Below, one piece after another: positions 3,101 through 32,000 of a DNA stretch of 32,000 bases. A program made the translations under genes and the position numbers. The notes beneath the pieces are model-generated. The model did not search any database. It was not told the origin of the DNA and worked only from the letters and a program-made list of their open reading frames with translations. The first letter of the stretch is position 1, and every line of letters begins with the position of its first letter. Origin of the DNA: Candidatus Saccharimonadota bacterium (lineage in GTDB: Bacteria > Patescibacteriota > Gracilibacteria > UBA1369 > 2-02-FULL-48-14); NCBI GenBank assembly GCA_041661045.1, contig JBAZVE010000001.1, positions 990,001 through 1,022,000 of the forward strand. The letters are read 5' to 3'.

Positions 3101-6209
<3,109 letters not shown>

Positions 6210-9300: not shown

Positions 9301-9616
9301 TGGTGGCAGCGGCTTCGGCGGCCTCGGCGGCGGCTACGGCATCCGCTTGCGCGGCTGCGAGTGCGGTAGCATCGTTGGCGTCGGCGGCGACGGTGGCCTC
9401 CCCGGCCGCTTCCATTGCCGCTACGGAAGCGTCTAACGCATCTTGCCTGTACGCTTCGACGGAATTGACTGTTTCTTCAAAATCTGAGGTGCCCGGCAAA
9501 GAGCCTCCCCATCTTCCCTTCAACCAATCGCTTTGCACAAGGGCAAAGGCGAGGGCGCCGAGGAGGACGAGGGCGAGGACGATAAGGATAAAAGGTTTAC
9601 GGGATTTATTGGGCAT
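6344..9616 (-). CDS. Large secreted/cell-surface protein with C-terminal SLH triplet (S-layer or adhesin candidate)
   Basis: 1090-aa ORF with this layout: N-terminal hydrophobic anchor/signal (aa 9-27); Ala-rich helical segments; Cys/Trp-rich region (aa ~155-290, 8 Cys); two copies of a Cys-bracketed ~120-135-aa module (aa 378-511 and 522-642); two beta-sandwich adhesin-type repeats (aa ~648-757 and 769-878, pattern TEGG..F.V.L...P...V...TFT..NW..PQ.(I/V)TVT.V.D); three SLH-like repeats (aa ~889-1090, e.g. FTDTNGEWFADLVCRLYQASIIQGRTSTTFVPADEITRAEWIKVM). Confidence 0.9.
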   Translation of the reverse strand: MPNKSRKPFILIVLALVLLGALAFALVQSDWLKGRWGGSLPGTSDFEETVNSVEAYRQDALDASVAAMEAAGEATVAADANDATALAAAQADAVAAAEAAEAAATTAEALRVQAEEFHNATEAAADAAEAALSGYQASYLEAIYNRDFAKVDLEHSYYGFYNELLMSNCTYTLYPGWGGYTYHSLCSFWGEWRVEYTQTNSVDFVDCANTDRDNASGAMERGDYNSTACLEVYESSFPACDTTTSGVIPGGEDPEAWFDNECTVENLVDWDTIWATWGTIGTAEWTPEVEAYLEEHIEDYEELLLQYQTMSTMVDTSHAAYTDALAAYSELNTLRNEEGVLMEEANRAAEAARNYATQARASADAALSLSITALESACSGLAVSPSSYEMAAEDTTADFDITVGISTTAVTASIPSLSDNLKAFTLTEIVIPTDGTSVEGWTGTLRFQSSGGSGSSFFSEDGITLSNPYLLNLTEPRIVTMHFTGGSVGETITVSVDGEETNCSESFTITQADPTEPDALACTGLTVTPSSYEIPANTPTASFDMSVMTTFDYDAATSMTALSATLSIKTDGAGGFSGSNLIHSDGTSEYLYSTGPENPYLITLTENSTILSGLFSGGVSGDTITVEMLEYPTCASKFTLTGGGTTTPVEANIVESSGTTAVTEGGATDSYTVALTAAPSATMGFKITPDAQLTVTPSSLIFDATNWSVPQMVTVTAVDDSSVEGTHSGVLTHSLSIYDTDASTAVPNLTATITDNDTSPTTPTTPTETGTISVSTISGNTTEAGGTATFTMVLSKQPTADVSVGLSSSDTTEGTVSPSSVTFTTATWSTPQTITVTGVADSSDDADVAYSIITAAAISTDAAYNGVNPGDVSVTNVNSGEVIKNRNYRCTDPFTDTNGEWFADLVCRLYQASIIQGRTSTTFVPADEITRAEWIKVMVLIFGHDVDDGWEDKTGFYDVSANDWFYPYLNIAEDEDVIRTRDNGYYFYPNEPITRADAILYAVRFADQSIYDYDVEDIFEDVDNEDYFAYALAIAYGTLVDTAQEDNVRVIEGYDDDSFKPYNDILRSEAMAIAYRVSLAWGIASEDWED

Positions 9617-11393
9617 ACCAAGCGAGGTAAAATCTTAAAGCGAGCGCCACTGCTTCTGAGCGAGCAATGGACTTTGTGGCACCGGCAGTGCCATTAGAAT
9701 ATCCTTCAAAAACACGAGTCGTCCCTTCATCAGGGTCTTCCACCATCTTGTTGTAGCCAATAATAATGGCATAGGTGTAGGGGTCGGAGGCTTTGAGGTC
9801 TGAGAAGGGGATGTCTTCTTCCTCCCAGTCCCACAAAGTTTGCTCCGCGGTTCGCACCATGTAAAGCATAAAGTCCCCACGAGTGATGTACGCATTTGGA
9901 TTTGCGTATCCTCCGTTATCTATCACTCGAACAACGCCGGCTTCTTGAGCGAGTACATACCATGGGTGAAACCACTCGCTTGATTTCACATCAATAAACT
10001 CTTCCGGGAGGCCTTCGGCATCTTCCTCCGTTTTTCCTGAGAGGAGCATCAATATTTTGATGGCTTCAGCGCGGGTGAGGTCTCCCTCAGGCACAAAACT
10101 ATTGGCATCTCGGCCATTGACGATTCCGGCTTGATAGAGTCGGCACACATTGCTGTAGGACCAGTGTGTTGAATCCACATCGGTAAAGGGTTCGGAGCAT
10201 ACAGCTTCTTTGCTTGTTAAAATGTCATTTATTGTTGTTGTAGTCTCGGTTGTCGTCGTGGTGGTGCTGGATTCAGTGGTGGTGCTAGTGGTGGATGAGC
10301 CGGAGCTTGAAGAACTGGAGGTGCTGTCGGAGGAACTGCTGCCATCGCTTGTTGTTGTGGTGGGCTCCGTTGTGGTTGTGGTAGGTTCGGTTGTGGTAGT
10401 GGTGCCTGTTGTAGTGCTTGAACCGGGGTAACTGGTGGCGTCGAGAGGGTCTGTTCCTGAATCGACTTCGGTTCCGTCTGAGTAAGTGTCCCCGTCGGTG
10501 TCACTGTTGTTGGGGTCTGTTACGGTATCCACTTCTTCGGCATCGGTGAGGCCATCGCCATCCGTGTCTAGGTTTGGATCAGGCTCGGTTGGAGCGGGTT
10601 CGGTTGGTTCTGTTGGTTCTGTTGGAGCCGCCTCGGTTACTTGAGTGAGTGTGAATTTGGTGCTGCATGAAGGATCTTCATTGATGGAAACAGTGATATT
10701 TTCTCCTTCTTTGCCTCCACTGAAGTTTATGTTGGCTACGGAGCCGGATTGAGTGAGGGCTACTTTATAAGGGTTGATGGGGCCGCTTTCCGTGAAGCTT
10801 GTTACGCTTCCATCGGGGTTGCTGAGGCTGTTCCCATGAAAAGCTCCGGCTCCATCGGATTCAAAAACGAGTGTGGCTTCAAAAGCCTCACTATCAGTCC
10901 AAGCATCCAGATCAAAAGTTGTAAGGGCGGTGAGGTCGAAATTGACCTCCGCTGTATTTGCAGGAATCTCATAAGAAGCCGGACTTACGGTGAGTGCGGT
11001 ACACACGATGCTGCTCGTAGTGCTTGTGCTCGTTGTTGTACTGCTTGTTGCGCTACGATCCAGAGGATCGCTACCGCTGCTGACTTCTTCACCATCGTTC
11101 ACGCCGTCTCCATCACTGTCCGGGTTGAGGGGGTCTGTCCCAAATCCTGTAACTTCCGCACCATCCATTAAGCCGTCGTCGTCGGAGTCGGAGTCGTTGG
11201 GGTCTGTCCCCAAATCCCCTTCATCGCTTTTGCGAAGACCATCGCCATCGTCATCGATGCCGGCGGATCCTTCGGTCTCGGTTCCTCCTTCACCTGTTCC
11301 AAATCTTCCCTTAAGAAGACTGGTTTGAGTGAGGGCGAAAACAATTCCGCCGAGTACTGTTAGGGCAATGAAAAGGTAGATGATTTTTTTCAT
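9606..11393 (-). CDS. Secreted/cell-surface protein with TSP3-type Ca-binding repeats, a shared Cys-bracketed module, a Thr/Ser-rich linker and a C-terminal SLH triplet; paralog of the downstream gene
   Basis: 595-aa ORF whose stop overlaps the start of the 1090-aa gene by 11 nt. It contains: DxDxDGxxD repeats (aa 45-112 and 272-320); the module CTALTVSPASYEIPAN...CSTKFTLTQ (aa 131-251); PT and T/S-rich linkers (aa 256-271 and 325-388); SLH repeats (aa ~399-595, FTDVDSTHWSYSNVCRLYQAGIVNGRDANSFVPEGDLTRAEAIKIL). Confidence 0.9.
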   Translation of the reverse strand: MKKIIYLFIALTVLGGIVFALTQTSLLKGRFGTGEGGTETEGSAGIDDDGDGLRKSDEGDLGTDPNDSDSDDDGLMDGAEVTGFGTDPLNPDSDGDGVNDGEEVSSGSDPLDRSATSSTTTSTSTTSSIVCTALTVSPASYEIPANTAEVNFDLTALTTFDLDAWTDSEAFEATLVFESDGAGAFHGNSLSNPDGSVTSFTESGPINPYKVALTQSGSVANINFSGGKEGENITVSINEDPSCSTKFTLTQVTEAAPTEPTEPTEPAPTEPDPNLDTDGDGLTDAEEVDTVTDPNNSDTDGDTYSDGTEVDSGTDPLDATSYPGSSTTTGTTTTTEPTTTTTEPTTTTSDGSSSSDSTSSSSSSGSSTTSTTTESSTTTTTTETTTTINDILTSKEAVCSEPFTDVDSTHWSYSNVCRLYQAGIVNGRDANSFVPEGDLTRAEAIKILMLLSGKTEEDAEGLPEEFIDVKSSEWFHPWYVLAQEAGVVRVIDNGGYANPNAYITRGDFMLYMVRTAEQTLWDWEEEDIPFSDLKASDPYTYAIIIGYNKMVEDPDEGTTRVFEGYSNGTAGATKSIARSEAVALALRFYLAWYAQ

Positions 11394-18023: not shown

Positions 18024-20234
18024 ATGACATTTCGCGCGCTGCTTTCCACTGCCGCCTGCTTGAACCTGTTTTGGGTGCTTCCCGCTTTTGCGGTTTCTTT
18101 CGAGTCGGACATAGAAAGTGGTTTGATCAAACGGAATGCGATTCAAAGTGAGCACTTCCAATTTGAATTTTCAGACATCATTGGGAATCAAGCGGACAGT
18201 GACGGGGATGGGGTCTCTGACATTATTGAACTTATTGCGGAGTCGGCTGAATACAGTTGGGATATTTTGGTGGAAGAAATGAATTATGAAGAGCCTATTG
18301 AAACGGGGGAACCTATCATTGTAATTTTGGACGACAATTATGAGTATCTCAGCTCCGGGGCCTTGGGAATCACCAGTGTTTTGACCAATGATCAACCTTA
18401 CATTGCCATTGATCCTTGGATGAGCCCGGATTATTTGGTGGTCACGATGGGGCATGAGTTTTACCATGCCATTCAATTTGGATACGACTTCAATTTTGCT
18501 TACACCTATCAAGGTATCAACTTTGCAGAAGCCACTGCCAGTTGGGCGGAGGATGTTCTGTTTGATACGGTGAATGATTACGGCCTTTATATCCCGGACT
18601 TTCTGAGTTATGTAGATTATTCCATCTTCGCCTCCATTGTGCCCACAGGAAGTTTGTATGAATATGGAATGAATATTTGGCCTCGCTTTTTAAGTGAGTA
18701 TTACGACAATGGCATTGTGAAGGATATTTGGGAAACTTATTTTGACTCCAATATCAGTTATGACAGTGATCTTAAATTGTATGAGGCGGTTTCGGCCGTT
18801 CTGGATGATGAGGGGGATGATTTGCCGACTGTTTTTCAGGAATTCACTTTGTGGAATTTGAGTTTGGAAGAGTATGAAGAAGGCAGCCTTTACCCCTCTG
18901 TTTTGATTCTGGAAGGGGAGGAAAGCCAGGAGTATACTTTGAGCGATGAGAACTATGCACCAGCCCTGTATGGAACCAACTATTTGTACTTTGAAAACAG
19001 TACCGGACAGAATGAATTCATGTTTCATATCATCAAGCCGGAGGGCGTGAGCTTTGCGGTTTCTTTGGTTCCTTATGATGGAGAGAGCTATGACCTTTCC
19101 AAGGCGAGAACACAGATTATTGAAGGGGACGAAGCAATGGAAGCCTTCTTAAGCCTGGAAAACATCGGGGCTCAGGATGGAGTGGTGGCGGTGATTTCCA
19201 GCCTGGAAATTGAATTTGAGAGTGGGAACAACTGGGAGGTTTTTGACCAAGGCTACCTGTATTACTATTTGGGCAATTACGGGCTTAGTGAAGATGCCTT
19301 TCAGGCTTTGATGGATGGAGCTCAAGAGGAAGTGGAAACGGATCAAGGTGAGAAGGAGGGAGAGGATATTGAGGATGCCTCTGATGCTCGCAGTGAAGGA
19401 GCTTTGACCCTTTCCATCTTAAGTTTTGATGACAACTCTGCCACCTTTTCTTGGAACAGGGTTGCGGATGAGGACATCGACAGTTACGAGCTCAATTACG
19501 GAACAAACAGTGGGTCTTATTCCAAATCTGTGGATATTGAGAACGAATACACCACTTTTGCGACGGTGACGCATTTGGATGAAGGAGAAACTTATTATTT
19601 CTCCCTTTCTGCTCTGGATGAGGATAATGACGAAATTGGGGACCCCAGTTCGGAACTAGTGGTGACGCCCATGGAGTGGATTTTTGAAGATGTTTCTTAC
19701 ATGGATATTCACTTTGATGCCATTGAGGCCTTGGTGGAAATTGGGATTTTTGAAGGCTACAGTGATGGAAGCTTTGGTCCCGAGAATGAGATCAACCGAG
19801 CGGAACTCCTCAAGATTTTGGTGGAGGGTCGTGGTATTGAAGTGGATCCATCCACAAACAAGAACTGTTTTCCTGATGTCCGTGAAGATTGGTATGCCAA
19901 GTATGTGTGTTACGCCAAGAATCAAGGTTGGATTCAAGGGTATAGCGATGGCAGCTTTAAGCCTGCGGATCCTGTGAACAAGGTGGAGGCGCTCAAAATG
20001 CTCTTTGAAGTGTATGAGGTAGAATTGAGTCAGGATGCTGTTGTGGCGAATCTCAAATATCCCGATTTGGATGAAAACGCCTGGTATGCCGTTTATGTAT
20101 GGAAGGCTTCTGCCCTTGGCGTTTTAGAAGAACTCACCACCGCAAACTTCAACCCCGATGCCGATCGTACTCGTGGCGAGATGGCTGAAGAACTTTATCG
20201 TTATTTAGTGGTGGACGGGGCGCTTCGAGAGTAG
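18024..20234 (+). CDS. Secreted HExxH zinc metalloprotease candidate with FN3 domain and C-terminal SLH triplet
   Basis: 736-aa ORF. Signal peptide MTFRALLSTAACLNLFWVLPAFA|VS. HEFYH at 18453-18467, with a downstream Glu in GINFAEATASWAED about 21 residues after the second His (gluzincin-like spacing). FN3-like segment aa ~459-549 (FSWNRV...YELNYG...YYFSLSALD). SLH repeats aa ~553-730 (FEDVSYMDIHFDAIEALVEIGIFEGYSDGSFGPENEINRAELLKIL). Confidence 0.85.
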   Translation: MTFRALLSTAACLNLFWVLPAFAVSFESDIESGLIKRNAIQSEHFQFEFSDIIGNQADSDGDGVSDIIELIAESAEYSWDILVEEMNYEEPIETGEPIIVILDDNYEYLSSGALGITSVLTNDQPYIAIDPWMSPDYLVVTMGHEFYHAIQFGYDFNFAYTYQGINFAEATASWAEDVLFDTVNDYGLYIPDFLSYVDYSIFASIVPTGSLYEYGMNIWPRFLSEYYDNGIVKDIWETYFDSNISYDSDLKLYEAVSAVLDDEGDDLPTVFQEFTLWNLSLEEYEEGSLYPSVLILEGEESQEYTLSDENYAPALYGTNYLYFENSTGQNEFMFHIIKPEGVSFAVSLVPYDGESYDLSKARTQIIEGDEAMEAFLSLENIGAQDGVVAVISSLEIEFESGNNWEVFDQGYLYYYLGNYGLSEDAFQALMDGAQEEVETDQGEKEGEDIEDASDARSEGALTLSILSFDDNSATFSWNRVADEDIDSYELNYGTNSGSYSKSVDIENEYTTFATVTHLDEGETYYFSLSALDEDNDEIGDPSSELVVTPMEWIFEDVSYMDIHFDAIEALVEIGIFEGYSDGSFGPENEINRAELLKILVEGRGIEVDPSTNKNCFPDVREDWYAKYVCYAKNQGWIQGYSDGSFKPADPVNKVEALKMLFEVYEVELSQDAVVANLKYPDLDENAWYAVYVWKASALGVLEELTTANFNPDADRTRGEMAEELYRYLVVDGALRE

Positions 20235-21357
20235 AGAGTTCCTCTAAGACAAAGTTGTTGAGTATGGCTTCGGCAAGTCTGATGGAGAGACATGGAGGCA
20301 CCGCGTTTCCAATTTGTAAATTTCTTTGGCTCCTCGACCCATAAAATTGATATTCATCCGGGAAGCATTGTATCCTCGCCCCCTCTCTTGTGGTGAGTGG
20401 CCTGGGGGCTTTGGGATGTATACATCGAGAAGAGGAAGGGGTGCTTAAATTTCTTGTGATGGTGGTTGAAGGTTTTTTCCACCACAGACGAGAGTAGGTA
20501 TTTTTAAAGCCGGATTTTGGCCTTAGGTTCTTTGGTAAATTTTCCGGGCTTCCTCCGTCGGGCAAGAGCTGCATCAGTTTAACCAGGTTTGGATTGTTTT
20601 TTGGGGCGTTATGATCTTGTAGTTTCTCTGGTGCATTTTTACGCATTATTTTTTGAAACTCATTTTTGGGTTCAGAAGCGTACTCAAAACTTTCTTCCCC
20701 GGAATTTATAAAGGGTAAATCTCCGATGGCGTCTTCCAGTGTCAGGTAGGGGCTGAGCAGACCACTAAAAAGGTTGGAGTCGGTTTCCGGGTTGTAATGA
20801 CTTGGGCTGGGATATTCAAAATTTGTTTTGAGTTTTGAGCCCACCAAGATGATGCGTTCTCTGATTTGTGGAGCTCCGTAATCCGCTGCGTTCAGTAGTT
20901 TGCATTGGACTTTATACCCTAGGGATTCAAAAAGAGTGATGATGTTCCCCAGTAATTCTCCATTTTGCATGGAGGTGAGGCCTCTTACATTTTCAAAAAG
21001 AAAAAACTTTGGTTTGAACTCGTCCAAAACCCTAAAATATTCTTTGAAGAGTTCCCCTCTTGGATCGTTGCTCGCTCGTTTCCCAACCGTTGAGTAGGCT
21101 TGGCATGGAGGTCCTCCAATAATGAGATCTATCTCTTCCGGATCAATTCCCAGATCCCTGCTCACTTTTTTTGCATTAAACTCTTTTACATCTTCATTGT
21201 AGACCTTTGTTTTAGGGTGATTTAAAGAGTAAGCCTTTGCCATTTGGGGAAGAATTTCGTTGGCCGCAACAATTTCAAAGCGATCGTCTTTTGCAAAACC
21301 ATAACTTAAGCCTCCAACTCCACAGAATAGATCGATGATTTTAAGGGTTTTTTTCAT
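20149..21357 (-). CDS. DNA (cytosine-5)-methyltransferase
   Basis: 402-aa ORF. Motif I IIDLFCGVGGLSYGF, motif IV GGPPCQAYS, motif VI FLFENVRGL, motif VIII QIRERIILVG, motif IX-X RPLTTREGARIQCFPDEYQF...QIGNAVPP. The last ~30 aa are a tail encoded antisense to the metalloprotease 3' end. Confidence 0.93.
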   Translation of the reverse strand: MKKTLKIIDLFCGVGGLSYGFAKDDRFEIVAANEILPQMAKAYSLNHPKTKVYNEDVKEFNAKKVSRDLGIDPEEIDLIIGGPPCQAYSTVGKRASNDPRGELFKEYFRVLDEFKPKFFLFENVRGLTSMQNGELLGNIITLFESLGYKVQCKLLNAADYGAPQIRERIILVGSKLKTNFEYPSPSHYNPETDSNLFSGLLSPYLTLEDAIGDLPFINSGEESFEYASEPKNEFQKIMRKNAPEKLQDHNAPKNNPNLVKLMQLLPDGGSPENLPKNLRPKSGFKNTYSRLWWKKPSTTITRNLSTPSSSRCIHPKAPRPLTTREGARIQCFPDEYQFYGSRSQRNLQIGNAVPPCLSIRLAEAILNNFVLEELSTLEAPRPPLNNDKVLQPSRHEYDRHRG

Positions 21358-21367
21358 GAGGATTGGG

Positions 21368-22156
21368 TCAATCGGGCATCATCTCTGCATAGGGTCTTGG
21401 ATCTTCCGTTATCCTCCATACGAAATAATTCTGATCTATATTGAATACGGTTTGCCCCTCCATCTGCTGTCGTGTGATCCAGTTTATATTGTCTTCCTCG
21501 ATTTCGTCCAATTTTATAAAAGCCACTTGGCCATTGTAAAGATCAAAGTGAATTCCAAGAGTGTGGAGTCCAAGATTTTGAAAAACTCTTTTTGCCTCTA
21601 AAACCTTGTGTTGTTTGATGTCGTTTATTCCAGTGAAACCGGCCTGCATCTCAATCCGTAGTTTCGGTCCTCCCTCCAAGCTGATTTCCAGGTCGGCTTT
21701 GGGGGTTCTCTTGAAAGTCTCGATTTTTTTAAGATCATCATCGCCAATGAGTTCAATTTTTGAAAAATCCACTCTAAAAATAGCTTCAAGTGCTTTTAGA
21801 AAGAAATTTGAAATGATGTACCCGCGCATCCAGGAATAGTAGACTTGTTCCGGGCGTCTGCCTTGGTTGTTGAGGACGGGGAAAATGGCGTTGGCCTTCA
21901 TGATTTGGAAAGGCTCGTCTACAAATTCCTTTTTGAATGCTTCCGCGTCTTTCAATTTTATTTTTTCTCCCACTGCGGCGTTGAGCCGATCAATCATTTC
22001 ATAGAGCCGTTCGTTGAGTTGATCGATATAGTTGAAGTCCACGCTTGGGGGAATATCTTTTGCCCCGAAAAAGTTTTTTACGGCGTTTTGATTTGCAAAA
22101 CCCAGCCGCACTCTGTACTCCCGAAAATGTTCCGGCAAGATTGCTTGTATTGGCAT
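21368..22156 (-). CDS. Putative type II restriction endonuclease (family not recognised), partner of the adjacent C5-methyltransferase
   Basis: The ORF track extends to 22219 into the tRNA gene. I trimmed it to the ATG at 22156 (MPIQAILPEH; 262 aa). It ends 10 nt before the methyltransferase start on the same strand. A possible PD-(D/E)xK-like stretch is TPKADLEISLEGGPKLRIEMQ (a D...ExQ variant). The functional call rests mainly on genomic context. Confidence 0.5.
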   Translation of the reverse strand: MPIQAILPEHFREYRVRLGFANQNAVKNFFGAKDIPPSVDFNYIDQLNERLYEMIDRLNAAVGEKIKLKDAEAFKKEFVDEPFQIMKANAIFPVLNNQGRRPEQVYYSWMRGYIISNFFLKALEAIFRVDFSKIELIGDDDLKKIETFKRTPKADLEISLEGGPKLRIEMQAGFTGINDIKQHKVLEAKRVFQNLGLHTLGIHFDLYNGQVAFIKLDEIEEDNINWITRQQMEGQTVFNIDQNYFVWRITEDPRPYAEMMPD

Positions 22157-22189
22157 GGTCTCTTTTTTTAAGCTGCACTTCGTGCAGTA

Positions 22190-22266
22190 TGGTGCACCCA
22201 GAGGGAGTCGAACCCCCAACCCCTGGTTCCGAAGACCAGTGCTCTATCCAGTTGAGCTATGGGTGC
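22190..22266 (-). tRNA. tRNA-Arg (anticodon UCG) with genomically encoded CCA
   Basis: The reverse complement GCACCCATAGCTCAACTGGATAGAGCACTGGTCTTCGGAACCAGGGGTTGGGGGTTCGACTCCCTCTGGGTGCACCA folds as a cloverleaf. Acceptor GCACCCA/TGGGTGC, D stem GCTC/GAGC, anticodon stem CTGGT/ACCAG with loop CTTCGGA (anticodon TCG), and T arm GGGGG-TTCGACT-CCCTC (one G-U pair). Confidence 0.9.
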
Positions 22267-22332: not shown

Positions 22333-25300
22333 CTATTTCCGTCGATTTTCCCAGTTGGTCCACCATACCAACATGGGGCTGGCGATGAAAATGGAGGAAT
22401 AGGTTCCGGCAAGCATTCCGATGATGAGGGCGAGTACGAAGATTCGGATGCTGTCGGCGCCAAAAATGAAGAGTGCCGTGATGGTGATGAGGGTTGAAAC
22501 AGAAGTGTTGAGGGATCGAGCCATGGTTTGATTCAAAGCTCTGTTGGCAATTTCTCCCAAACTGTCTTTTTCTCCACGCAAATGAAGATTCTCACGAATA
22601 CGATCGAAGACCACGATGGTATCGTGGACGGAGAATCCCATGATGGTGAGCAAGGCAGTGATGAAGAGGGCATCCATCTCAATGTCCAGGAAGTGCCCAA
22701 GCACCACAAAGACTCCAATGACGAGGAGCACATCGTGCAATAAGGCCACAATGGCGGAAATTCCAAATTTCCACGCACTGATTTCTTTGGTCACTTTTCG
22801 GAAGGCAAAAGCAATGTAAAGCACAATCATCACGGAGGTGATGGCCAAAGCCCATCCGGCTTTTTGTTTGAGGGTTTCACCAATTGTGGGTCCAACGGTG
22901 GTGAAGCGGATTTCTTCAAAAGATTCCTGACCTTCGGCCAGTTTGCTCACAATGGCTTGATGGGTCGGTTCATCCATGTGTTTCATGCGGATCAAGAAAT
23001 TGCCTTGGTCGGTGCTCACGATGTGAGGCGTTCCAAAGTCTCCTTGAAGAGCCGTTTCCACTTCTTCGAGTTTTTGGCTGATTTCTTCGCTGGTGCGGCC
23101 TTCGTCCATGTGCAGTTCCAAGGAGGTTCCTCCGGTGAAATCGATACCCCAGTTGATGGGGAAGATAAGGATTGCCACAAGAGCGAGCGCAGCGAGCAGC
23201 CCGGAGATTCCACCCCAGATGGCACTCTTTTGAATGATGGGCAGCAAGACTTTGCGAGAGGTGCGAGGTTTTCCCCACAAGCTCAATTTGTCGGCCAGTT
23301 TGGTGTTGGCGGCAGCTAGGAGCAGGGTTCTTGTGAGCATGATGGCGCTGAACATGGAAAGCAGAATTCCGAGCGCGAGGTTGAGCGCAAATCCACGGAT
23401 GATGGAGGAGCCAAAGTAAAAGAGAATGATACAAGTGATGAGGGAAGAGAAGTTGGAATCGCGGATGGAGTCCCAGGCTCGTTTGAATCCTTCTTCAATG
23501 GCTTGATGGAGGTTTCGTCCATTGCCGAGTTCTTCTTTCATGCGTTCAAAGATGAGTACATTGGCATCCACGGCCATTCCAATGGAAAGGATCACTCCGG
23601 CGATACCCGCCAAGGTGAGGGTGATTTTGGTGGAGAGGACCATGGTGAGGAAGAAGAGGACAAAACAGGTCACCACAAAGGCGATGAATTTTTCTCCGCC
23701 GGAATCTTTGTTCTTAAGAATGAGGTGTATGGCAAAACCAAACACTCCAAGGGCAATGAGCAAGGCCACTGCGGTGGGAAGGGCGGTTTTGATGACAAAG
23801 AGGAGCAGGAGAGAGTAAATGCCCAAGGCCACGGTGGCGATGAGTCCCGGGAGACGGTAGTAGAGAATCATAAAGAGAGCCAGTACAATCACTCCAATCA
23901 AACCTCCAAAAAGGCTTTGATCCAAAGCTTCTTGCCCCAGTGAGGCGCTGATGTTGTACTGTCCCACCAACTCAACGGGTGCCGGAATGGCACCGGTGTT
24001 GAGGTCTCGAGCTAAATTTTGAGCTTCTTCCAGAGTGAAGTTTCCACTGATTTGAGCGGAACCTCCGCTGATCTTTTCATTCACATTGGGGGCGGAGATT
24101 AGGTTTCCTCCCACAAAAATAGCGATTCGTTTGCCCACATTTTTCTCGGTGAGTTGTTCAAACAGTGTGGCGCCTTCCTCATTGAATGTGATGCTCACAA
24201 AAGGTTGGTAGGCCTGGTTGAAGGCCACATCGGCTCGTTCGAAGTGTTCTCCGGTCATGGCAGGTGTCTCCAGCCATGGGTCAGGAGTGGTGCTGAAGAG
24301 AATCTTGTTGAAGGCCACTTTTTCGACGCTGATGGTTTCGCTGCTGGCCTCTTGTTTTTCATAGACTTGAATGAGGTGGTATCCAAACTCAGTTTCCACT
24401 ACTTCGGAAACACTGTTCACTTCCAAGGCAAAGGCTGCTTCTTCAAAAGCATCGGTCATCACTCCACGGCCAAAAGCTCCCAAATCTCCACCGGTTTCTT
24501 TTCCGCTGGGGTCATCGGTATATTCCTTTGCCAATTCCTCAAAAGAAGCTCCTTCAGATAATTTTGTTTGTACTTCTTGAATACGCGTTAAGGCTTCTTC
24601 TTTGGTTCGAGTGATGCCTTCAGCAGAGGTTTCGGAGCCCTCGAAAGCTACTAAAATATGGCGGGCGCTCACTTCTTCTTCAATTTCTCGGATTTCTTCT
24701 TCATTCTTTCTATCGGTGACTTGCACCACGGTCATTCCTTTGTTGGCCACGCCCATTCCATTTTCATCAATCGTGTAGCCTTCATCCAATTCAAAAGGAC
24801 CAAAAATACTATTCACCTCGCGGCCCTGGAGTGCGGCCATCAAGCTTGTGCTTAAAGTGCTGATGTCGGTGAGTTCCACTTCTTCCACCCTCACTTCACC
24901 TGAATTTTCTTCTTGTGCGGCTTCTGCAAGCGTCATGAATTCCCCTCCGCCATTCACTTGAGCGAGAAAAGCATTGGCGGCATCGGTGGCCCAAGAGAGC
25001 TGTTCGTCATCTTGAGGATTTGGATTTTCTTCGCGGAATTCCAGTTGAATGGTTTTACCCACGGTTGCTTTGGCTTCTTCCAAGTCGGTGATTCCAGCCA
25101 ATTCCACCACAATGTGCTTTTCGCTACCCACGGTGGAAACAAAAATATTGGGTTCCGAAACGCCCAGACTATCCACTCGTTTTCGAATCACTTCTTTTAC
25201 TCCCTCCACAATTTGGTCTTGATCCGCTTCTGCCACCTGGCTCATGTCGATGGCGTAGTCGAGTTGGGTTCCACCTTTAAGATCCAAACCGAGCTTGAGA

Positions 25301-25389
25301 TCGGTCTTTGCATCCACAAAGCCCAAAGCCCCCGCAAAGAGGAGGATGACTAAAATTTTACCGGCGAGCATTTTTTTTACGGAAAGCAT
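22333..25389 (-). CDS. secDF: Protein translocase subunit SecDF fusion with an inserted parvulin-type PPIase module
   Basis: 1018-aa ORF. SecD N-terminus and P1 base: LGLDLKGGTQL...VIRKRVDSLGVSEPNIFV...IVVELAG...TIQLEFRE, then later KRIAIFVGGNLISAPNVNEKISGGSAQISGNFTLEEAQNLARDLNTGAIPAPVEL. 6+6 TM regions. SecF start GIDFTGGTSLEL. The parvulin block lies in between (see the next feature). Confidence 0.93.
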   Translation of the reverse strand: MLSVKKMLAGKILVILLFAGALGFVDAKTDLKLGLDLKGGTQLDYAIDMSQVAEADQDQIVEGVKEVIRKRVDSLGVSEPNIFVSTVGSEKHIVVELAGITDLEEAKATVGKTIQLEFREENPNPQDDEQLSWATDAANAFLAQVNGGGEFMTLAEAAQEENSGEVRVEEVELTDISTLSTSLMAALQGREVNSIFGPFELDEGYTIDENGMGVANKGMTVVQVTDRKNEEEIREIEEEVSARHILVAFEGSETSAEGITRTKEEALTRIQEVQTKLSEGASFEELAKEYTDDPSGKETGGDLGAFGRGVMTDAFEEAAFALEVNSVSEVVETEFGYHLIQVYEKQEASSETISVEKVAFNKILFSTTPDPWLETPAMTGEHFERADVAFNQAYQPFVSITFNEEGATLFEQLTEKNVGKRIAIFVGGNLISAPNVNEKISGGSAQISGNFTLEEAQNLARDLNTGAIPAPVELVGQYNISASLGQEALDQSLFGGLIGVIVLALFMILYYRLPGLIATVALGIYSLLLLFVIKTALPTAVALLIALGVFGFAIHLILKNKDSGGEKFIAFVVTCFVLFFLTMVLSTKITLTLAGIAGVILSIGMAVDANVLIFERMKEELGNGRNLHQAIEEGFKRAWDSIRDSNFSSLITCIILFYFGSSIIRGFALNLALGILLSMFSAIMLTRTLLLAAANTKLADKLSLWGKPRTSRKVLLPIIQKSAIWGGISGLLAALALVAILIFPINWGIDFTGGTSLELHMDEGRTSEEISQKLEEVETALQGDFGTPHIVSTDQGNFLIRMKHMDEPTHQAIVSKLAEGQESFEEIRFTTVGPTIGETLKQKAGWALAITSVMIVLYIAFAFRKVTKEISAWKFGISAIVALLHDVLLVIGVFVVLGHFLDIEMDALFITALLTIMGFSVHDTIVVFDRIRENLHLRGEKDSLGEIANRALNQTMARSLNTSVSTLITITALFIFGADSIRIFVLALIIGMLAGTYSSIFIASPMLVWWTNWENRRK
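24355..24675 (-). other. Parvulin (PpiC/PrsA/SurA-type) peptidyl-prolyl isomerase domain embedded in the SecD periplasmic P1 domain
   Basis: aa ~239-345: VSARHILVAFEG...SFEELAKEYTDDPSGKETGGDLGAFGRGVMTDAFEEAAFALEVNSVSEVVETEFGYHLIQV. This matches the parvulin pattern (A/S)xHIL...F..LA..YS.D..S...GGDLG.F..G.M...F..A.F.L..G..S..V.T..GYH.I. Confidence 0.85.
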
Positions 25390-25431: not shown

Positions 25432-25459
25432 ATTATACGAGGAAATAACTTTAAAACAA
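25432..25459 (-). promoter_or_regulatory. Sigma-70-type promoter candidate for secDF
   Basis: In the minus sense: TTGTTT (plus-strand 25454-25459), a 16-nt spacer, then a perfect TATAAT (25432-25437). The -10 hexamer ends 42 nt upstream of the secDF ATG at 25389. Confidence 0.35.
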
Positions 25460-25517
25460 GCTATCCCTAGCCTGTTTTATTGGCAGAAGGTGAATTGTGT
25501 GGTCTTGCTACCAATGG

Positions 25518-29607: not shown

Positions 29608-30648
29608 TCAAGAAGAAAAGAGTTCGTGATCTTCTTTCAGTGCTTTTTCGCAAATCTCCGCGATGCGCGCCAGGGTTGCCACCGCTTCTGTGGGATAGGA
29701 ACCCACGGCGGTTTCATTGGAGAGCATCACGGCGTTGGCTCCATCAAAGATGGCGTTGGCGGCGTCGCTCACTTCCGCTCGCGTGGCTAGCGGGCTTTTG
29801 ATCATGGACTGCAAAACTTGAGTGGCGATGATCACCGGTTTTTTGGCTTTTCGGCAGAGGGCGATGATCTTTTTCTGTTCCACAGGAACTCGTTCCGCTT
29901 CAATTTCAATGCCAAGATCTCCTCGCGCCACCATGATCCAATCGGAGGCCTCAATGATTTCTTTTATTTTCTTGAGCGCTCGAGGGCGTTCGATTTTTGC
30001 AATGATTTTCACTTGCTTCGCCCCGAGCTCAAGCAAAGCTTTTCGCACTCGTTCAATGTCCTCCGCCTTCTCCACAAAAGAAACGGCCACGCAATCGACT
30101 TTTAGTGTTTTCACCCCAAACTCAAGGTCCTTTTGATCCTTTTGATTCAGCGCTTCGGAGGCGGGGAGTCGAGAGTCCGGAATATTGACCCCTTTGTGCG
30201 ACTTTAAAACCCCTCCGATTAAAACTTTGGCTTTCACGAAGCCCTTTTCTTTGGATACAATTTTTGTTCGAATCAAGCCGTCCTCAATCAATAAATGGTC
30301 GCCTTCTTCCACCACTTCCGCCAAGGGAGGATAGGGGAGGGGAATGCAGTTTTCTTGTTTTCCTTTAGTGCAAAAATTCAGGACTTGGCCTTTTTTCACC
30401 TTAATGCCCTCCGGGGGGAGGTCTCCCAGGCGGATTTTTGGCCCCTGTAAATCTTGCATGATTTCTATTTTTTGACCACTCTCTTTTTCGGCGGCGTGGA
30501 TGTTTTTCACGATCTTTTTAAATTGGTCGTAAGAGCCGTGTGAAAAATTGAGGCGAGCCATATTCATGCCCGCCTCAATGAGTGCTTTAATTTCTAGTTT
30601 TTCTTCCGTTGCAGGCCCTAGAGTCGCAAGGATTTTGGTCTTTCGCAT
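29608..30648 (-). CDS. pyk: Pyruvate kinase, short form lacking the C-terminal (allosteric) domain
   Basis: 346-aa ORF. MRKTKILATLGPAT...GMNMARLNFSHGSYD, then MVARGDLGIEI and MLSNETAVGSYPTEAV. The protein ends ~25 aa after this block, where canonical ~470-aa enzymes continue with the C domain. Confidence 0.9.
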   Translation of the reverse strand: MRKTKILATLGPATEEKLEIKALIEAGMNMARLNFSHGSYDQFKKIVKNIHAAEKESGQKIEIMQDLQGPKIRLGDLPPEGIKVKKGQVLNFCTKGKQENCIPLPYPPLAEVVEEGDHLLIEDGLIRTKIVSKEKGFVKAKVLIGGVLKSHKGVNIPDSRLPASEALNQKDQKDLEFGVKTLKVDCVAVSFVEKAEDIERVRKALLELGAKQVKIIAKIERPRALKKIKEIIEASDWIMVARGDLGIEIEAERVPVEQKKIIALCRKAKKPVIIATQVLQSMIKSPLATRAEVSDAANAIFDGANAVMLSNETAVGSYPTEAVATLARIAEICEKALKEDHELFSS

Positions 30649-32000
30649 CAGTTCTTAAGTTTACGGTTGTGGTAGAAGAGCCCGAGTCCGGCCAAGCTGG
30701 CGAGCACCGCGAGAGTTCCCAATGCAATCACCCAAGGAGAAGTGGTTTCTCCACTGATGAAGGCGGTGTTGGTCACCGTGAACTTGATTTGTGTGGGGCT
30801 ACTCTTGGCGCCGGTTTCCAGGTCCATAGCGTACCATGTGGCCGTGTGCTCTCCAAGTTCCAGGTTTTCCACCGGTCTTGCGTACACGGTTTGTTCCGCG
30901 GCATCGGCAATCAAGGTTTGGCTGTATATTGTGCTTTGCCATGCAATCATGATCATGTAATCGTCTGCTGCTTTTAGTGCAAGGGAAGGACGGCGTTCAT
31001 TCACTACCGATCCATCTTGTAATCCCAAACTGATGTATTGAGGTTTCTTCACATAACTGACCACATTGAGGGCCAATGATCGTGAGAGTCCGTTTACAGA
31101 GTTCAGATTTTTACCGGTGGTGAGGATCACGGTGTGTTCTCCTTCGGCAAGTTCGCTTGAGCTTAAGAGGACGAAACGACCTTCTTCATCGGACTTTGTT
31201 TCTCCAATGAGAACCAATTCGTTCTCAGCATCCACTTCGTAGGCTTGAACGGTTTCTTCTTCTGCGGCGGCGTGACCGATGAACAGCACTTGGCCTTCCT
31301 CCACAGTATCTCCATCCTTCACATTCACCACATTGAGCATTTCAGCGGCGGAGGCGGGGGTGGTGACAAGGGGGTCTGTTCCATAGTGGAGCACTTCATC
31401 TCCATCACTGAGCCCGTCGCCATCACTGTCTTCATCTTGAGGATCGGCATCAATAGTGAGTTCATGCAAGTCTGATAGACCGTCTTCGTCGGAATCGATG
31501 GACCCCAGAGAATCCGTGATTTCTTCGTCTTCAATGTAGTCGATGAGGATTTGTGGATCTACTTCCTGTGCGGTGTAGGCGAGGGGGGTCTCATCTACGG
31601 TATCGCTGATTCCATCTCCATCACTGTCGGAGGATTCAGGATCGGTTCCTGTCTCAAACAGTTCGAGAGTATCGCTGATTCCATCTCCATCGGTATCCTC
31701 TTCATAAATATTTCCTCCACCGATGAGCTCCTCCCAGTCGAGGGTTCCATCTCCATCCGTATCTCGGGTGCCGTTGAGCACCTTGTCTTTAATAAAGAGA
31801 TTGATGAGGATTTGAGGAACACCTTGAGGATTTTTGTTTCCAAAGAACTTGGTTTCAAAAAGCTTGAAGTTGTACTTCCCTTCTCGAACAGGTTTTTCAG
31901 GGAGACCGTCTCGAATGCTTTTAATGGTGATCGGTTCCACGAATTCATAGATTCCACTGAAGAAACTTCGTACGGTAGCATCCTCTTTGATGGGCTTCGT
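30648..32000 (-). CDS. Cell-surface protein (5'-partial; frame open to the window edge) with TSP3-type Ca-binding repeats, two Ig-like domains and a C-terminal hydrophobic anchor
   Basis: The ORF-track start at 31940 is a GTG. The same frame stays open through 32000 (...TKPIKEDATVRSFFSGIYEF-VEPITIK), so the N-terminus lies outside the window. DTDGDGxxD repeats aa ~58-190. Two beta-rich Ig-like segments. C-terminus GETTSPWVIALGTLAVLASLAGLGLFYHNRKLKN (TM helix plus basic tail). The stop overlaps the pyk ATG (TGATG). Confidence 0.85.
   Translation of the reverse strand, partial: TKPIKEDATVRSFFSGIYEFVEPITIKSIRDGLPEKPVREGKYNFKLFETKFFGNKNPQGVPQILINLFIKDKVLNGTRDTDGDGTLDWEELIGGGNIYEEDTDGDGISDTLELFETGTDPESSDSDGDGISDTVDETPLAYTAQEVDPQILIDYIEDEEITDSLGSIDSDEDGLSDLHELTIDADPQDEDSDGDGLSDGDEVLHYGTDPLVTTPASAAEMLNVVNVKDGDTVEEGQVLFIGHAAAEEETVQAYEVDAENELVLIGETKSDEEGRFVLLSSSELAEGEHTVILTTGKNLNSVNGLSRSLALNVVSYVKKPQYISLGLQDGSVVNERRPSLALKAADDYMIMIAWQSTIYSQTLIADAAEQTVYARPVENLELGEHTATWYAMDLETGAKSSPTQIKFTVTNTAFISGETTSPWVIALGTLAVLASLAGLGLFYHNRKLKN

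Follow-up and report, generated by a model that had tools for sequence, protein, structure and literature searches.

A tandem parvulin insert at the P1 base-to-head crossover of SecDF in Peregrinibacteria and Peribacteria

The window, that is, the whole stretch of 32,000 nucleotides that was analysed, encodes on its minus strand a fused SecDF protein whose P1 domain carries an insert composed of two parvulin-like domains. The gene and its parts are listed in the order of the polypeptide.

22333..25389, minus strand: secDF gene, 1018 codons and stop, fused SecD and SecF carrying the parvulin insert (from the ORF list)
25306..25386, minus strand: TM1 of SecD, aa 2-28 (hydrophobic sequence; predicted helix 2-28 in the model)
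25030..25299, minus strand: N-terminal part of the P1 base, aa 31-120, with IQLEFRE as its last strand (Pfam SecD_1st, aa 62-122)
24682..25029, minus strand: segment A, aa 121-236, degenerate parvulin-like, SurA-P1-like, lacking both catalytic-type His residues (profile comparison)
24349..24681, minus strand: parvulin B, aa 237-347, intact PPIC-type PPIase domain (Pfam and Foldseek)
24274..24348, minus strand: return strand and linker, aa 348-372, a long β-strand (349-366) followed by a PDPW motif leading into the head (DSSP, both models)
23950..24273, minus strand: retained P1 head subdomain, aa 373-480 (Pfam SecDF_P1_head)
23275..23949, minus strand: SecD membrane domain with TM2-TM6, aa 481-705 (Pfam SecD_SecF_C, alignment with E. 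coli SecD 5MG3_D, invariant columns)
23644..23769, minus strand: extra hydrophobic helical hairpin of ~45 aa, aa ~541-582, between TM3 and TM4 of the SecD part (alignment gap)
22336..23274, minus strand: SecF part, aa 706-1018, with Sec_GG motif, P4 domain and TM7-12 (profile matches)

The preliminary description had read this ORF as a 1018-residue SecDF fusion, and by sequence the product belongs to SecDF, both halves scoring above the curated cut-offs: TIGR01129 (SecD) matches with 401.1 bits (cut-off 244.4), TIGR00966 (SecF) with 326.8 bits (cut-off 160) and TIGR00916 with 345.3 bits (cut-off 148.6). The full-length SecDF equivalog models stay below theirs (e.g. NF009583, 608.7 vs 721), as is expected because of the large insert. 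Pfam domains follow each other in the order SecD_1st (aa 62-122), Rotamase_3 (aa 234-345) and SecDF_P1_head (aa 375-470), and then two matches each of SecD_SecF_C and Sec_GG; within the SecF part, TIGR00966 covers aa 717-1010, Sec_GG aa 738-762 and SecD_SecF_C aa 816-1012. The full-length AF2 model (pLDDT 85.6) shows the 12-TM pseudo-symmetric SecDF fold with P1 (base and head) and P4, together with two additional helices at aa 539-586. Its SecDF body matches the crystal structures 5XAN_B, 5YHF and 3AQP with E-values down to 3e-36 and TMt values of 0.58-0.67, the best being that of 5XAN_B (0.67), and the SecDF state closest to the model is the I form.

Canonical SecDF, as known from Thermus thermophilus (3AQP/5YHF), Deinococcus (5XAN/5XAP) and E. 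coli (SecD/SecF), has the same succession of TM1, P1 base, P1 head and five more TM helices, followed by SecF with P4 and six TM helices. The window protein shares with it the Sec_GG motifs, the structural match of the model (TMt 0.64-0.67) and the invariant Asp in the TM4 motif AVDANVLIFER. This residue, Asp608, is invariant in 112 sequences, its motif is aligned with AVDANVLINER of E. coli SecD, and it provides the conserved charged residue of the proton pathway in SecD TM4. We take D608 to be the TM4 Asp that is essential in the proton pathway of SecDF (Tsukazaki 2011).

In the window protein, aa 32-119 of the P1 base align with Thermus SecDF 34-116, and aa 373-474 align with Thermus 155-256. 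The P1-base strand IQLEFRE is separated from the P1 head by ~250 residues (aa ~121-372), in which Pfam found no domain other than parvulins and which stand in place of ~38 residues of the Thermus protein (117-154) at the start of the head. In P1 the polypeptide crosses twice between base and head, and comparison with Thermus SecDF and with insert-less SecDs from CPR bacteria puts the insertion in the first of these crossovers. Modelled alone, the insert reached a pLDDT of 96 and a pTM of 0.78. A parvulin PPIase inside the periplasmic P1 domain had been proposed from the sequence, and the Rotamase_3 match (E 3.8e-31) between SecD_1st and SecDF_P1_head bears this out. The proposed limits of the insert need one correction. 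Its start after GKTIQLEFRE (aa 111-120) was right, as were the positions given for ARHILV (from aa 242), FGYHLIQV (aa 335-342) and FNEEGATLFEQL (from aa 402), the highlighted span of 24355-25035 corresponding to aa 119-345; the canonical sequence had been thought to resume at aa ~400, whereas SecD homology restarts at aa 373, so that the insert ends at aa ~372 (window position 24274).

The same description had the parvulin occupy the P1 head region, which we cannot uphold. The head is complete at aa 373-480, with SecDF_P1_head matching at E 2.5e-30 in the full ORF and at 1.2e-31 when the region is scanned alone; it contains many invariant residues, is 64% identical within the family (mean pairwise identity of the P1 base: 70%), and shows the strand and helix pattern of a head in the model. 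W372, at the end of the linker before the head, is conserved to 99%. The parvulins supplement a complete P1 head at the base-to-head crossover and do not replace it. Replacement of the head, with the foldase itself as the moving, substrate-gripping element, could be read from the linear sequence, where the parvulins sit at the point at which the head begins, but the full, highly conserved head with its strong Pfam score and its alignment to the Thermus head rules this candidate out, and we consider it exceedingly improbable.

An insert of this kind in DNA of an uncultivated organism, presumably from a metagenome, might also be a chimeric assembly or an ORF wrongly joined, with a PrsA-like gene put into secD; the origin of the sequence is the only basis for this suspicion. 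Against it, the ORF is continuous and its base composition even, the model folds confidently as one protein, and identical domain order and boundaries recur in at least 240 distinct 90%-identity clusters from Peregrinibacteria and Peribacteria, some of them on contigs of more than 1 Mb. Furthermore, in the independent Logan assembly SRR18595301 the product is 100% identical and its gene has the same neighbours. Because these independent clusters share the architecture and the second assembly agrees, a join inside the ORF is excluded, and the probability that we would still give to a chimaera is next to nil.

The same clusters dispose of the rarity that had been implied for the architecture, which is the norm across the whole candidate lineage (Peregrinibacteria/Peribacteria), with insert boundaries that are alike in SecD-only and fused SecDF forms. 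In the SecDs of the other CPR lineages compared, a set that leaves out the code-25 Gracilibacteria and the Absconditabacteria, the insert was not found. Nor did the searchable literature yield a description of a parvulin within SecDF, in line with the earlier remark that no characterised example was known. S-layer type exported proteins had likewise been noted nearby; SLH-domain proteins of this type are indeed encoded in the window, as is Lgt. The coupling of PMF-driven pulling to folding that the description proposed, and its link to the export of large S-layer proteins, are putative. Peribacteria have been described as having a Gram-positive-like envelope and many large exported proteins (PMC4736985). 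The 128-nt intergenic region upstream of secDF was searched for a leader or arrest peptide with no obvious result; it holds only a terminator-like hairpin and a TATAAT.

Parvulin B is a parvulin by gathering score (PF00639/PF13616), with 108.5 bits for Rotamase_3 (E 3.8e-31; cut-off 22.5), 93.2 bits for Rotamase (E 2e-26; cut-off 21.7) and 43.2 bits for Rotamase_2 (cut-off 27). Its model has the parvulin fold of a four-stranded sheet packed by helices, and Foldseek superposes it on the Pin1 PPIase domain with an rmsd of 1.0-2.0 Å, a TMt of 0.87-0.89 and 41% identity, and on PrsA (6XD8) with a TMt of 0.93; for Pin1 and PrsA together the superpositions lie at 1-2 Å. The active-site constellation of two His, a Cys/Asp site and a Leu/Met/Phe proline pocket is present, with H244, D293, L303, M311, F315, F335 and H338 as active-site-type residues. 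By sequence alignment we equate H244, D293, L303, M311, F315 and H338 with what we take to be H59, C113, L122, M130, F134 and H157 in Pin1 numbering. Among 112 family members, H244 is kept in 111 and H338 and F315 in all, both His occurring together in 111; M311 is found in 92 (82%) and L303 in 98%. Position 293, the Cys/Asp site, is Asp in 75, Glu in 12 and Cys in 7, i.e. one of these in 94 of the 112, and Gly in the other 18, every one of which is a SecD-only form. Parvulin B thus has the features of an apparently catalytically competent domain of the PrsA/Pin1 structural type, for which PPIase activity is predicted from sequence and model.

Segment A had been suspected to be a preceding, degenerate parvulin repeat devoid of the catalytic His, and its homology to parvulin domains is borne out by several comparisons. 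Aligned profile to profile by hhalign, it matches parvulin B with 97% probability (E 1e-10), and its own profile matches the SurA P1 domain (2PV1, E 4.7e-6), PrsA (5e-4), PpiC-type parvulins (9e-4) and PpiD (2.7e-3), which makes the SurA P1 domain its nearest relative in terms of sequence. Segment A of 14 out of 41 family members matches Pfam Rotamase independently (best 4e-8), whereas the copy in the window stays below the gathering score (18.4 vs 21.7 bits). Foldseek aligns SurA (1M5Y) over 226-232 columns of the insert model, covering both halves, and segment A is modelled with a pLDDT above 90. Neither the catalytic-type His pair nor an N-terminal β1 strand was found in segment A, where the alignment begins at helix 1; the second His position is Thr220 in the window protein and variable across the family. 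The return strand (aa 349-366) might supply the missing β1 of segment A in an arrangement like a circular permutation; with the strand so placed, the permuted profile is in register, though the similarity is weak, and scores 57.6 as opposed to 55.0 and 51.2, a small gain. Searches for free-standing relatives of this segment and for the size of its family say little, owing to its fast divergence and the huge size of the databases: phmmer against 1.84 billion representatives gave only 4 matches, and the segment-A profile gave none at E ≤ 0.001 in a library of 5.8 billion. A relationship to the P1 head or base was tried and rejected, as hhalign assigns these 27% and 0.1% probability vs 97% for parvulin B. 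Family identity in segment A is only 25%, yet its length is constant at ~116 aa, and the segment is probably a peptide-binding or scaffold domain.

Parvulin B, at 48% family identity, lies below head and base (64-70%), and from this graded constraint it follows that both the old and the new parts are under purifying selection. Conserved His residues are no proof of catalysis, because SurA and PpiD function as chaperones even when their PPIase activity is dispensed with. Accordingly, the tandem parvulins might serve solely as a holdase or docking module that binds unfolded chains or a partner protein non-catalytically, the His pair being kept for the stability of the fold. Segment A is clearly non-catalytic, and the motifs of parvulin B have decayed in some members, one relative having Gln at the first His position and no GGDLG, in addition to the 18 with Gly at position 293. 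Set against this are the two His in 111 of 112 relatives, a largely kept proline pocket (L303 98%, M311 82%, F315 100%) and a model that fits the active Pin1 domain at 1.0 Å; since the pocket is retained across sequences only 48% identical, its use as such is suggested. We therefore regard a purely non-catalytic module as a minority reading, rather unlikely overall.

Known parvulin chaperones resemble the insert in different respects. SurA of E. coli (1M5Y; P1 domain 2PV1) has parvulins in tandem, P1 and P2, a pair that the insert resembles, the first inactive and the second of the active type, its P1 domain is the best PDB match of segment A, and Foldseek spans both halves of the insert with it. 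Unlike SurA, the insert has no N-terminal chaperone domain and no C-terminal tail and is not soluble, the relative orientation of the two domains differs (rmsd 7-8 Å), and the host is no classical diderm with OMPs. The insert falls outside SurA proper, with 61.4 bits for NF008038 (cut-off 394) over profile positions 185-387 only, i.e. the two parvulins. PrsA, the lipoprotein foldase of Gram-positive bacteria (4WO7, 5HTF, 6VJ4, 6XD8), is nearest to parvulin B in sequence (E 7e-20); like the window protein it is tethered to the cytoplasmic membrane, on its outer face, in a cell of monoderm type, and a role in the folding of secreted proteins is presumed for both. The window protein differs from PrsA in lacking a lipobox and the NC dimerisation/chaperone domain, in being tethered by insertion into SecD instead of a lipid anchor, and in having a second, degenerate parvulin. 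The PrsA models match in the parvulin region only and far below their cut-offs (NF002846, 77.6 vs 361 bits; NF002827, 74.1 vs 343), and the NC domain was not found.

Two further systems have a parvulin or PPIase domain at the translocon. PpiD/YfgM of E. coli, at SecYEG, is likewise a chaperone with a parvulin domain that a membrane anchor keeps at the translocon; PpiD, however, stands on its own as a protein, has a TM helix of its own and a SurA-like chaperone domain, and its only parvulin is inactive. In Mycoplasma pneumoniae, a minimal cell that is wall-less or monoderm, Mpn444 places an extracellular PPIase domain physically beside SecD, but it is a distinct lipoprotein, trimeric and unrelated in its overall architecture, and its association is non-covalent. 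It cross-links to SecD and has been proposed to fold chains leaving SecYEG (bioRxiv 10.1101/2024.09.05.611430). SurA binds the holo-translocon, and AlphaFold puts its two parvulin domains on the P1 head of SecDF (PMC9987972), the site of contact with the precursor (PMC5974789); PpiD works together with SecD/F in VemP's translocation (PMC7793623). The insert-bearing SecDF would be a naturally fused form of the SecDF–SurA, –PpiD and –PrsA partnerships proposed in model bacteria.

Altogether, with a probability of roughly 60% for the explanation as a whole, we favour the view that the product of this gene is a functional SecDF translocation factor driven by protons, with predicted PMF-stimulated export, that its tandem parvulin insert would serve at the translocon exit as a foldase/holdase tethered in cis, and that the insertion dates to the ancestor of Peregrinibacteria and Peribacteria. 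As in other SecDFs, the P1 head would capture an unfolded secretory chain leaving SecYEG; the chain would then pass to the adjacent parvulin pair of the same polypeptide, which would keep it from aggregating and speed prolyl isomerisation during release. The canonical head would keep its substrate-contacting role beside the parvulin module, and the net effect would be a PrsA/PpiD/SurA-type foldase permanently at the translocon exit of a cell without a closed periplasm. What the analysis shows is which domains are present, in which order and within which boundaries, that the head is retained, how far the parts are conserved and how the architecture is distributed over the lineage; chaperone or PPIase activity, action on emerging substrates and any coupling to head movement are inferred.

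The location of the insert, exactly in the base-to-head crossover, also allows a purely mechanical reading, namely a structural spacer or regulator that tunes or gates the F-to-I swing of the P1 head from its hinge, or reaches the cell wall or S-layer, making no direct contact with substrate. Long β-strands at aa 213-236 and 349-366, present in both models, suggest a rigid ribbon, and the full-length model is most like the I form. A pure spacer, however, would have had no reason to retain the active-site constellation of a parvulin over such a time, peptide binding is a known property of parvulin domains, and parvulin chaperones acting in trans have been reported at or near SecDF in other bacteria; we judge it improbable that the module does nothing else.

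A more far-reaching version of the favoured cis-tethered foldase/holdase sees SecDF and tandem-parvulin chaperones as a single functional unit of the translocon exit, and this unit as hard-wired into one polypeptide in Peregrinibacteria. The pair in the hinge would then follow the P1 head in its PMF-driven swing, so that pulling and isomerisation or holding would be mechanically coupled, and in these reduced genomes the module would stand in for a free foldase of the PrsA type. We put this forward tentatively, as possible but well short of even odds. If true, it would provide 'Rosetta stone' evidence for a hand-off between SecDF and SurA, PpiD or PrsA, which has until now been put forward on the basis of low-resolution EM, cross-linking and AlphaFold docking alone. 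How the Sec channel passes unfolded proteins on to extracytoplasmic folding factors is an open question of the field, where current proposals rest on weak or indirect evidence, and a conserved fusion with a SurA-like parvulin pair beside the SecDF head supplies evidence from evolution, independent of those proposals, that these activities go together. Being a single chain of defined stoichiometry, the fusion also lends itself to structural and biochemical work. It may further be one way in which a CPR bacterium of monoderm type, with a reduced genome and many large surface proteins to export, keeps a foldase at the exit site.

Apart from the parvulins, the protein departs from canonical SecDF in the additional hydrophobic hairpin of ~45 aa between TM3 and TM4 of the SecD part, which appears as an alignment gap with no counterpart in the SecD of E. 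coli (5MG3_D) or Thermus (3AQP). Its two helices are predicted at aa 539-559 and 564-586 with a pLDDT of 86-94. The hairpin occurs in the fused SecDF relatives, where the region measures 225 aa, and not in the SecD-only relatives, where it measures 174 aa.

The secDF gene of the window is an uninterrupted reading frame whose product carries a parvulin domain between two segments of SecD:

22333..25389, minus strand: secDF ORF, 1018 codons, uninterrupted (ORF listing of the window)
aa 62-122: SecD_1st (Pfam)
aa 234-345: Rotamase_3 (Pfam, E 3.8e-31; Rotamase, E 2e-26)
aa 375-470: SecDF_P1_head (Pfam, E 2.5e-30)
C-terminal to the P1 head: SecD_SecF_C twice and Sec_GG twice (Pfam)

A preliminary description had placed a parvulin at window coordinates 24355-25035, which correspond to aa 119-345, inside a SecDF fusion. 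Indeed, the SecD and SecF halves both exceed the curated NCBIfam cut-offs (TIGR01129, 401 bits vs 244; TIGR00966, 327 bits vs 160), Pfam puts Rotamase_3 between SecD_1st and SecDF_P1_head, and the sequence strings quoted at the time were found at the positions assigned to them. Since reading frame, domain order, scores and strings agree, the observation is confirmed at the sequence level, far beyond chance. The protein falls below the cut-offs of the full-length SecDF equivalog models of NCBIfam, as expected from its large insert.

The claim that the parvulin occupies the P1 head region was, by contrast, wrong. In an alignment with Thermus thermophilus SecDF (3AQP), aa 32-119 correspond to residues 34-116 and aa 373-474 to residues 155-256, so that ~253 residues (aa 120-372) substitute for ~38 Thermus residues. 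C-terminal to the insert the P1 head is complete (E 1.2e-31 when scanned by itself), contains numerous invariant residues and is conserved at 64% mean pairwise identity within the family, next to 70% for the P1 base and 72% for the membrane core. With the whole head still in place, the parvulins supplement it, having entered at the first crossover from base to head. In the SecDs of other Candidate Phyla Radiation bacteria used for comparison (Saccharibacteria, Yanofskybacteria, Paceibacterota and others), only 20-45 residues separate the strand 'LEFxE' from the head motif 'LTGxxL'; in the alignment, the window protein has a long insert at exactly this site, as do its relatives from Peribacteria/Peregrinibacteria.

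In the second half of the insert, parvulin B (aa 237-347), the PPIC-type domain is intact, a bona fide parvulin as had been proposed. The insert modelled alone with AlphaFold reaches a pLDDT of 96.0 and a pTM of 0.78, and in Foldseek the parvulin B model fits the PPIase domain of human Pin1 to within 1.0-2.0 Å (TMt 0.84-0.89, 41% identity) as well as Bacillus PrsA 6XD8 (TMt 0.93); by sequence, PrsA parvulin domains are the closest solved relatives (E 7e-20). Counted over 112 aligned family members, H338 and F315 are present in all, H244 in 111 and M311 in 92. Position 293 (D293 in the window protein), which we take to be the equivalent of the Pin1 Cys, the Par10 Cys and the PrsA Asp, holds Asp, Glu or Cys in 94 members and Gly in 18, the latter being SecD-only forms. 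This retained active-site constellation counts against a purely structural hinge or spacer, the less likely alternative. The main alternative, a non-catalytic holdase or docking module, is favoured by the Gly at position 293 and by occasional motif decay: in L006:5231-6634, a relative from Candidatus Peregrinibacteria Bin_155, the first parvulin His is replaced by Gln and the GGDLG motif is gone, with the second His kept (FGFHII). Not every member has therefore maintained the parvulin active site.

Inactivity of the first half, segment A (aa 121-236), likewise favours a non-catalytic role. This segment is a degenerate parvulin, in line with the His-less repeat suspected earlier: profile-profile comparison matches it to parvulin B with 97% probability (E 1e-10), vs 27% for the P1 head and 0.1% for the P1 base. 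It has no beta1 strand and neither of the two His. Its profile alone matches the SurA P1 domain 2PV1 best (E 4.7e-6), followed by PrsA, PpiC-type and PpiD parvulins, and in 14 of 41 members it matches Pfam Rotamase unaided (best E 4e-8). Segment A evolves fast (25% mean identity) at a steady length of ~116 residues. Both halves are covered by SurA 1M5Y (226-232 insert columns, Foldseek), and the NCBIfam SurA model covers aa 121-349 via its two-parvulin region only. A long strand (aa 349-366) connects parvulin B back to the P1 head and is similar to a degenerate parvulin beta1 ('VAFNKILFS' vs 'VSARHILVA'); in a permuted profile with this strand as beta1 of segment A, the score gain was small. 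A SecD-only subclass (P0069, P0078, P0104 and P0111; ~760-785 aa) has ~60 additional residues within parvulin B and ~30 in the return-strand region, and loop insertions are seen in the alignment in L006 and another relative, L003.

The window protein is neither a SurA (61 bits vs a cut-off of 394, without the SurA N-domain or tail) nor a PrsA (78 bits vs 361, without NC domain or lipobox) nor a PpiD; by every sequence and fold comparison it is a SecDF. The best match of its full-length model (pLDDT 85.6) is the I-form SecDF crystal 5XAN_B (E 3e-36, TMt 0.67); 5YHF and 3AQP come next. In the TM4 motif AVDANVLIFER, the Asp (D608) is invariant across the family. Given these matches and D608, the SecDF machine looks intact. 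Its SecD membrane domain contains one extra element:

23644-23769, minus strand: hydrophobic segment of ~45 aa, VALLIALGVFGFAIHLILKNKDSGGEKFIAFVVTCFVLFFLTMVLS (aa ~541-582)

Nothing in the SecD of E. coli or Thermus corresponds to this segment, which is predicted as two confident helices (pLDDT 86-94), with which the protein would be a 14-helix SecDF. It occurs in fused SecDF relatives (region of 225 aa) and not in SecD-only parvulin-bearing relatives (174 aa). The periplasmic P4 region of SecF (aa 761-835, window 22885-23109) measures 75 aa here and up to 161 aa among fused relatives.

The window gene belongs to a large family, and in one candidate lineage a parvulin-bearing SecD or SecDF is the norm. 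With the P1 region as query there were at least 120 matches, all of those listed with SecD_1st, Rotamase and SecDF_P1_head and most of them SecD-only (680-785 aa); the full protein gave at least 120 further matches, and those listed are all SecDF fusions (1001-1120 aa) that carry this domain set, at identities down to 48%. Their sources are named Candidatus Peregrinibacteria, Peribacteria, 'Gracilibacteria' and Patescibacteria group, and several sit on contigs >1 Mb. Insert boundaries and lengths are identical between SecD-only and fused forms, which points to a single insertion event that would be older than the lineage's fusion or fission of SecD and SecF. An assembly chimera is ruled out by the at least 240 matches with the same domains, by the independent Logan assembly SRR18595301 (100% identical product, same neighbouring genes) and by the uniform base composition along the gene. 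These proteins have long been public with automatically assigned names (at NCBI, SecD, SecF or 'peptidylprolyl isomerase') and the family is uncharacterised; full-text literature searches found no description of a SecD or SecDF with an embedded parvulin, in line with the preliminary description.

Precursor proteins are contacted by an amphiphilic cavity in the P1 head, which swings from a membrane-facing to an upright position and back in a movement coupled to proton flow (PMC5974789). Chaperones of the parvulin type have been placed beside SecDF in trans by three lines of work: SurA binds to the holo-translocon, with both of its parvulin domains, P1 and P2, docked by AlphaFold on the P1 head of SecDF (PMC9987972); PpiD cooperates with SecD/F in VemP translocation (PMC7793623); and a Mycoplasma pneumoniae PPIase-domain lipoprotein cross-links to SecD (bioRxiv 10.1101/2024.09.05.611430). 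In the Peregrinibacteria protein the same two kinds of component are covalently joined. By analogy, we infer a cis version of SurA, PrsA and PpiD, in which the head would capture the emerging chain and pass it to the adjacent parvulin pair, which would hold it and accelerate prolyl isomerisation during release; a foldase of this kind would thus be permanently tethered at the translocon exit. The analysis establishes which domains are present, their order, their conservation and their distribution; the activity, the contact with substrates and a mechanical link to the movement of the head are putative. Although built from familiar components and putative in function, the family offers Sec-pathway specialists a neat evolutionary argument for the debated SecDF-to-chaperone hand-off and a good structural target.

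The surroundings are those of an ordinary chromosome of a small-genome bacterium, with housekeeping genes (sigma-70 factor, CTP synthase, PriA, a TyrRS/TrpRS-type synthetase, RuvC, pyruvate kinase), envelope and export genes (Lgt, prepilin peptidase) and the following:

6344-9616, 9606-11393 and 30648-31940, minus strand: cluster of large predicted exported proteins (SLH, bacterial TSP3 and fn3 domains)
18024-20234, plus strand: member of this cluster, across which these domains occur
20149-21357 and 21368-22219, both minus strand: C-5 cytosine DNA methylase gene and neighbouring 283-aa ORF

The exported proteins probably form an S-layer or sit at the cell surface, and the window's Sec system likely has them as clients. 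For Peribacteria, the genome paper reports peptidoglycan, S-layer genes, sortase and numerous large exported proteins, and is silent on SecDF and PPIases (PMC4736985). The methylase gene, directly downstream of secDF, may form a restriction-modification pair with the 283-aa ORF, which has no Pfam match; a 456-aa ORF flanked by lgt and the CTP synthase gene (3101-4471, minus strand) has none at E <= 0.001. Between secDF and the cupin gene upstream of it (region 25432-25479), there is no evident ORF for a leader or arrest peptide. This interval holds a 12-pair terminator-like hairpin (25479..25452, minus strand) and then a TATAAT hexamer (25437..25432, minus strand), read by eye, with a poor -35 and not called by the scan; secDF may thus be its own transcription unit.
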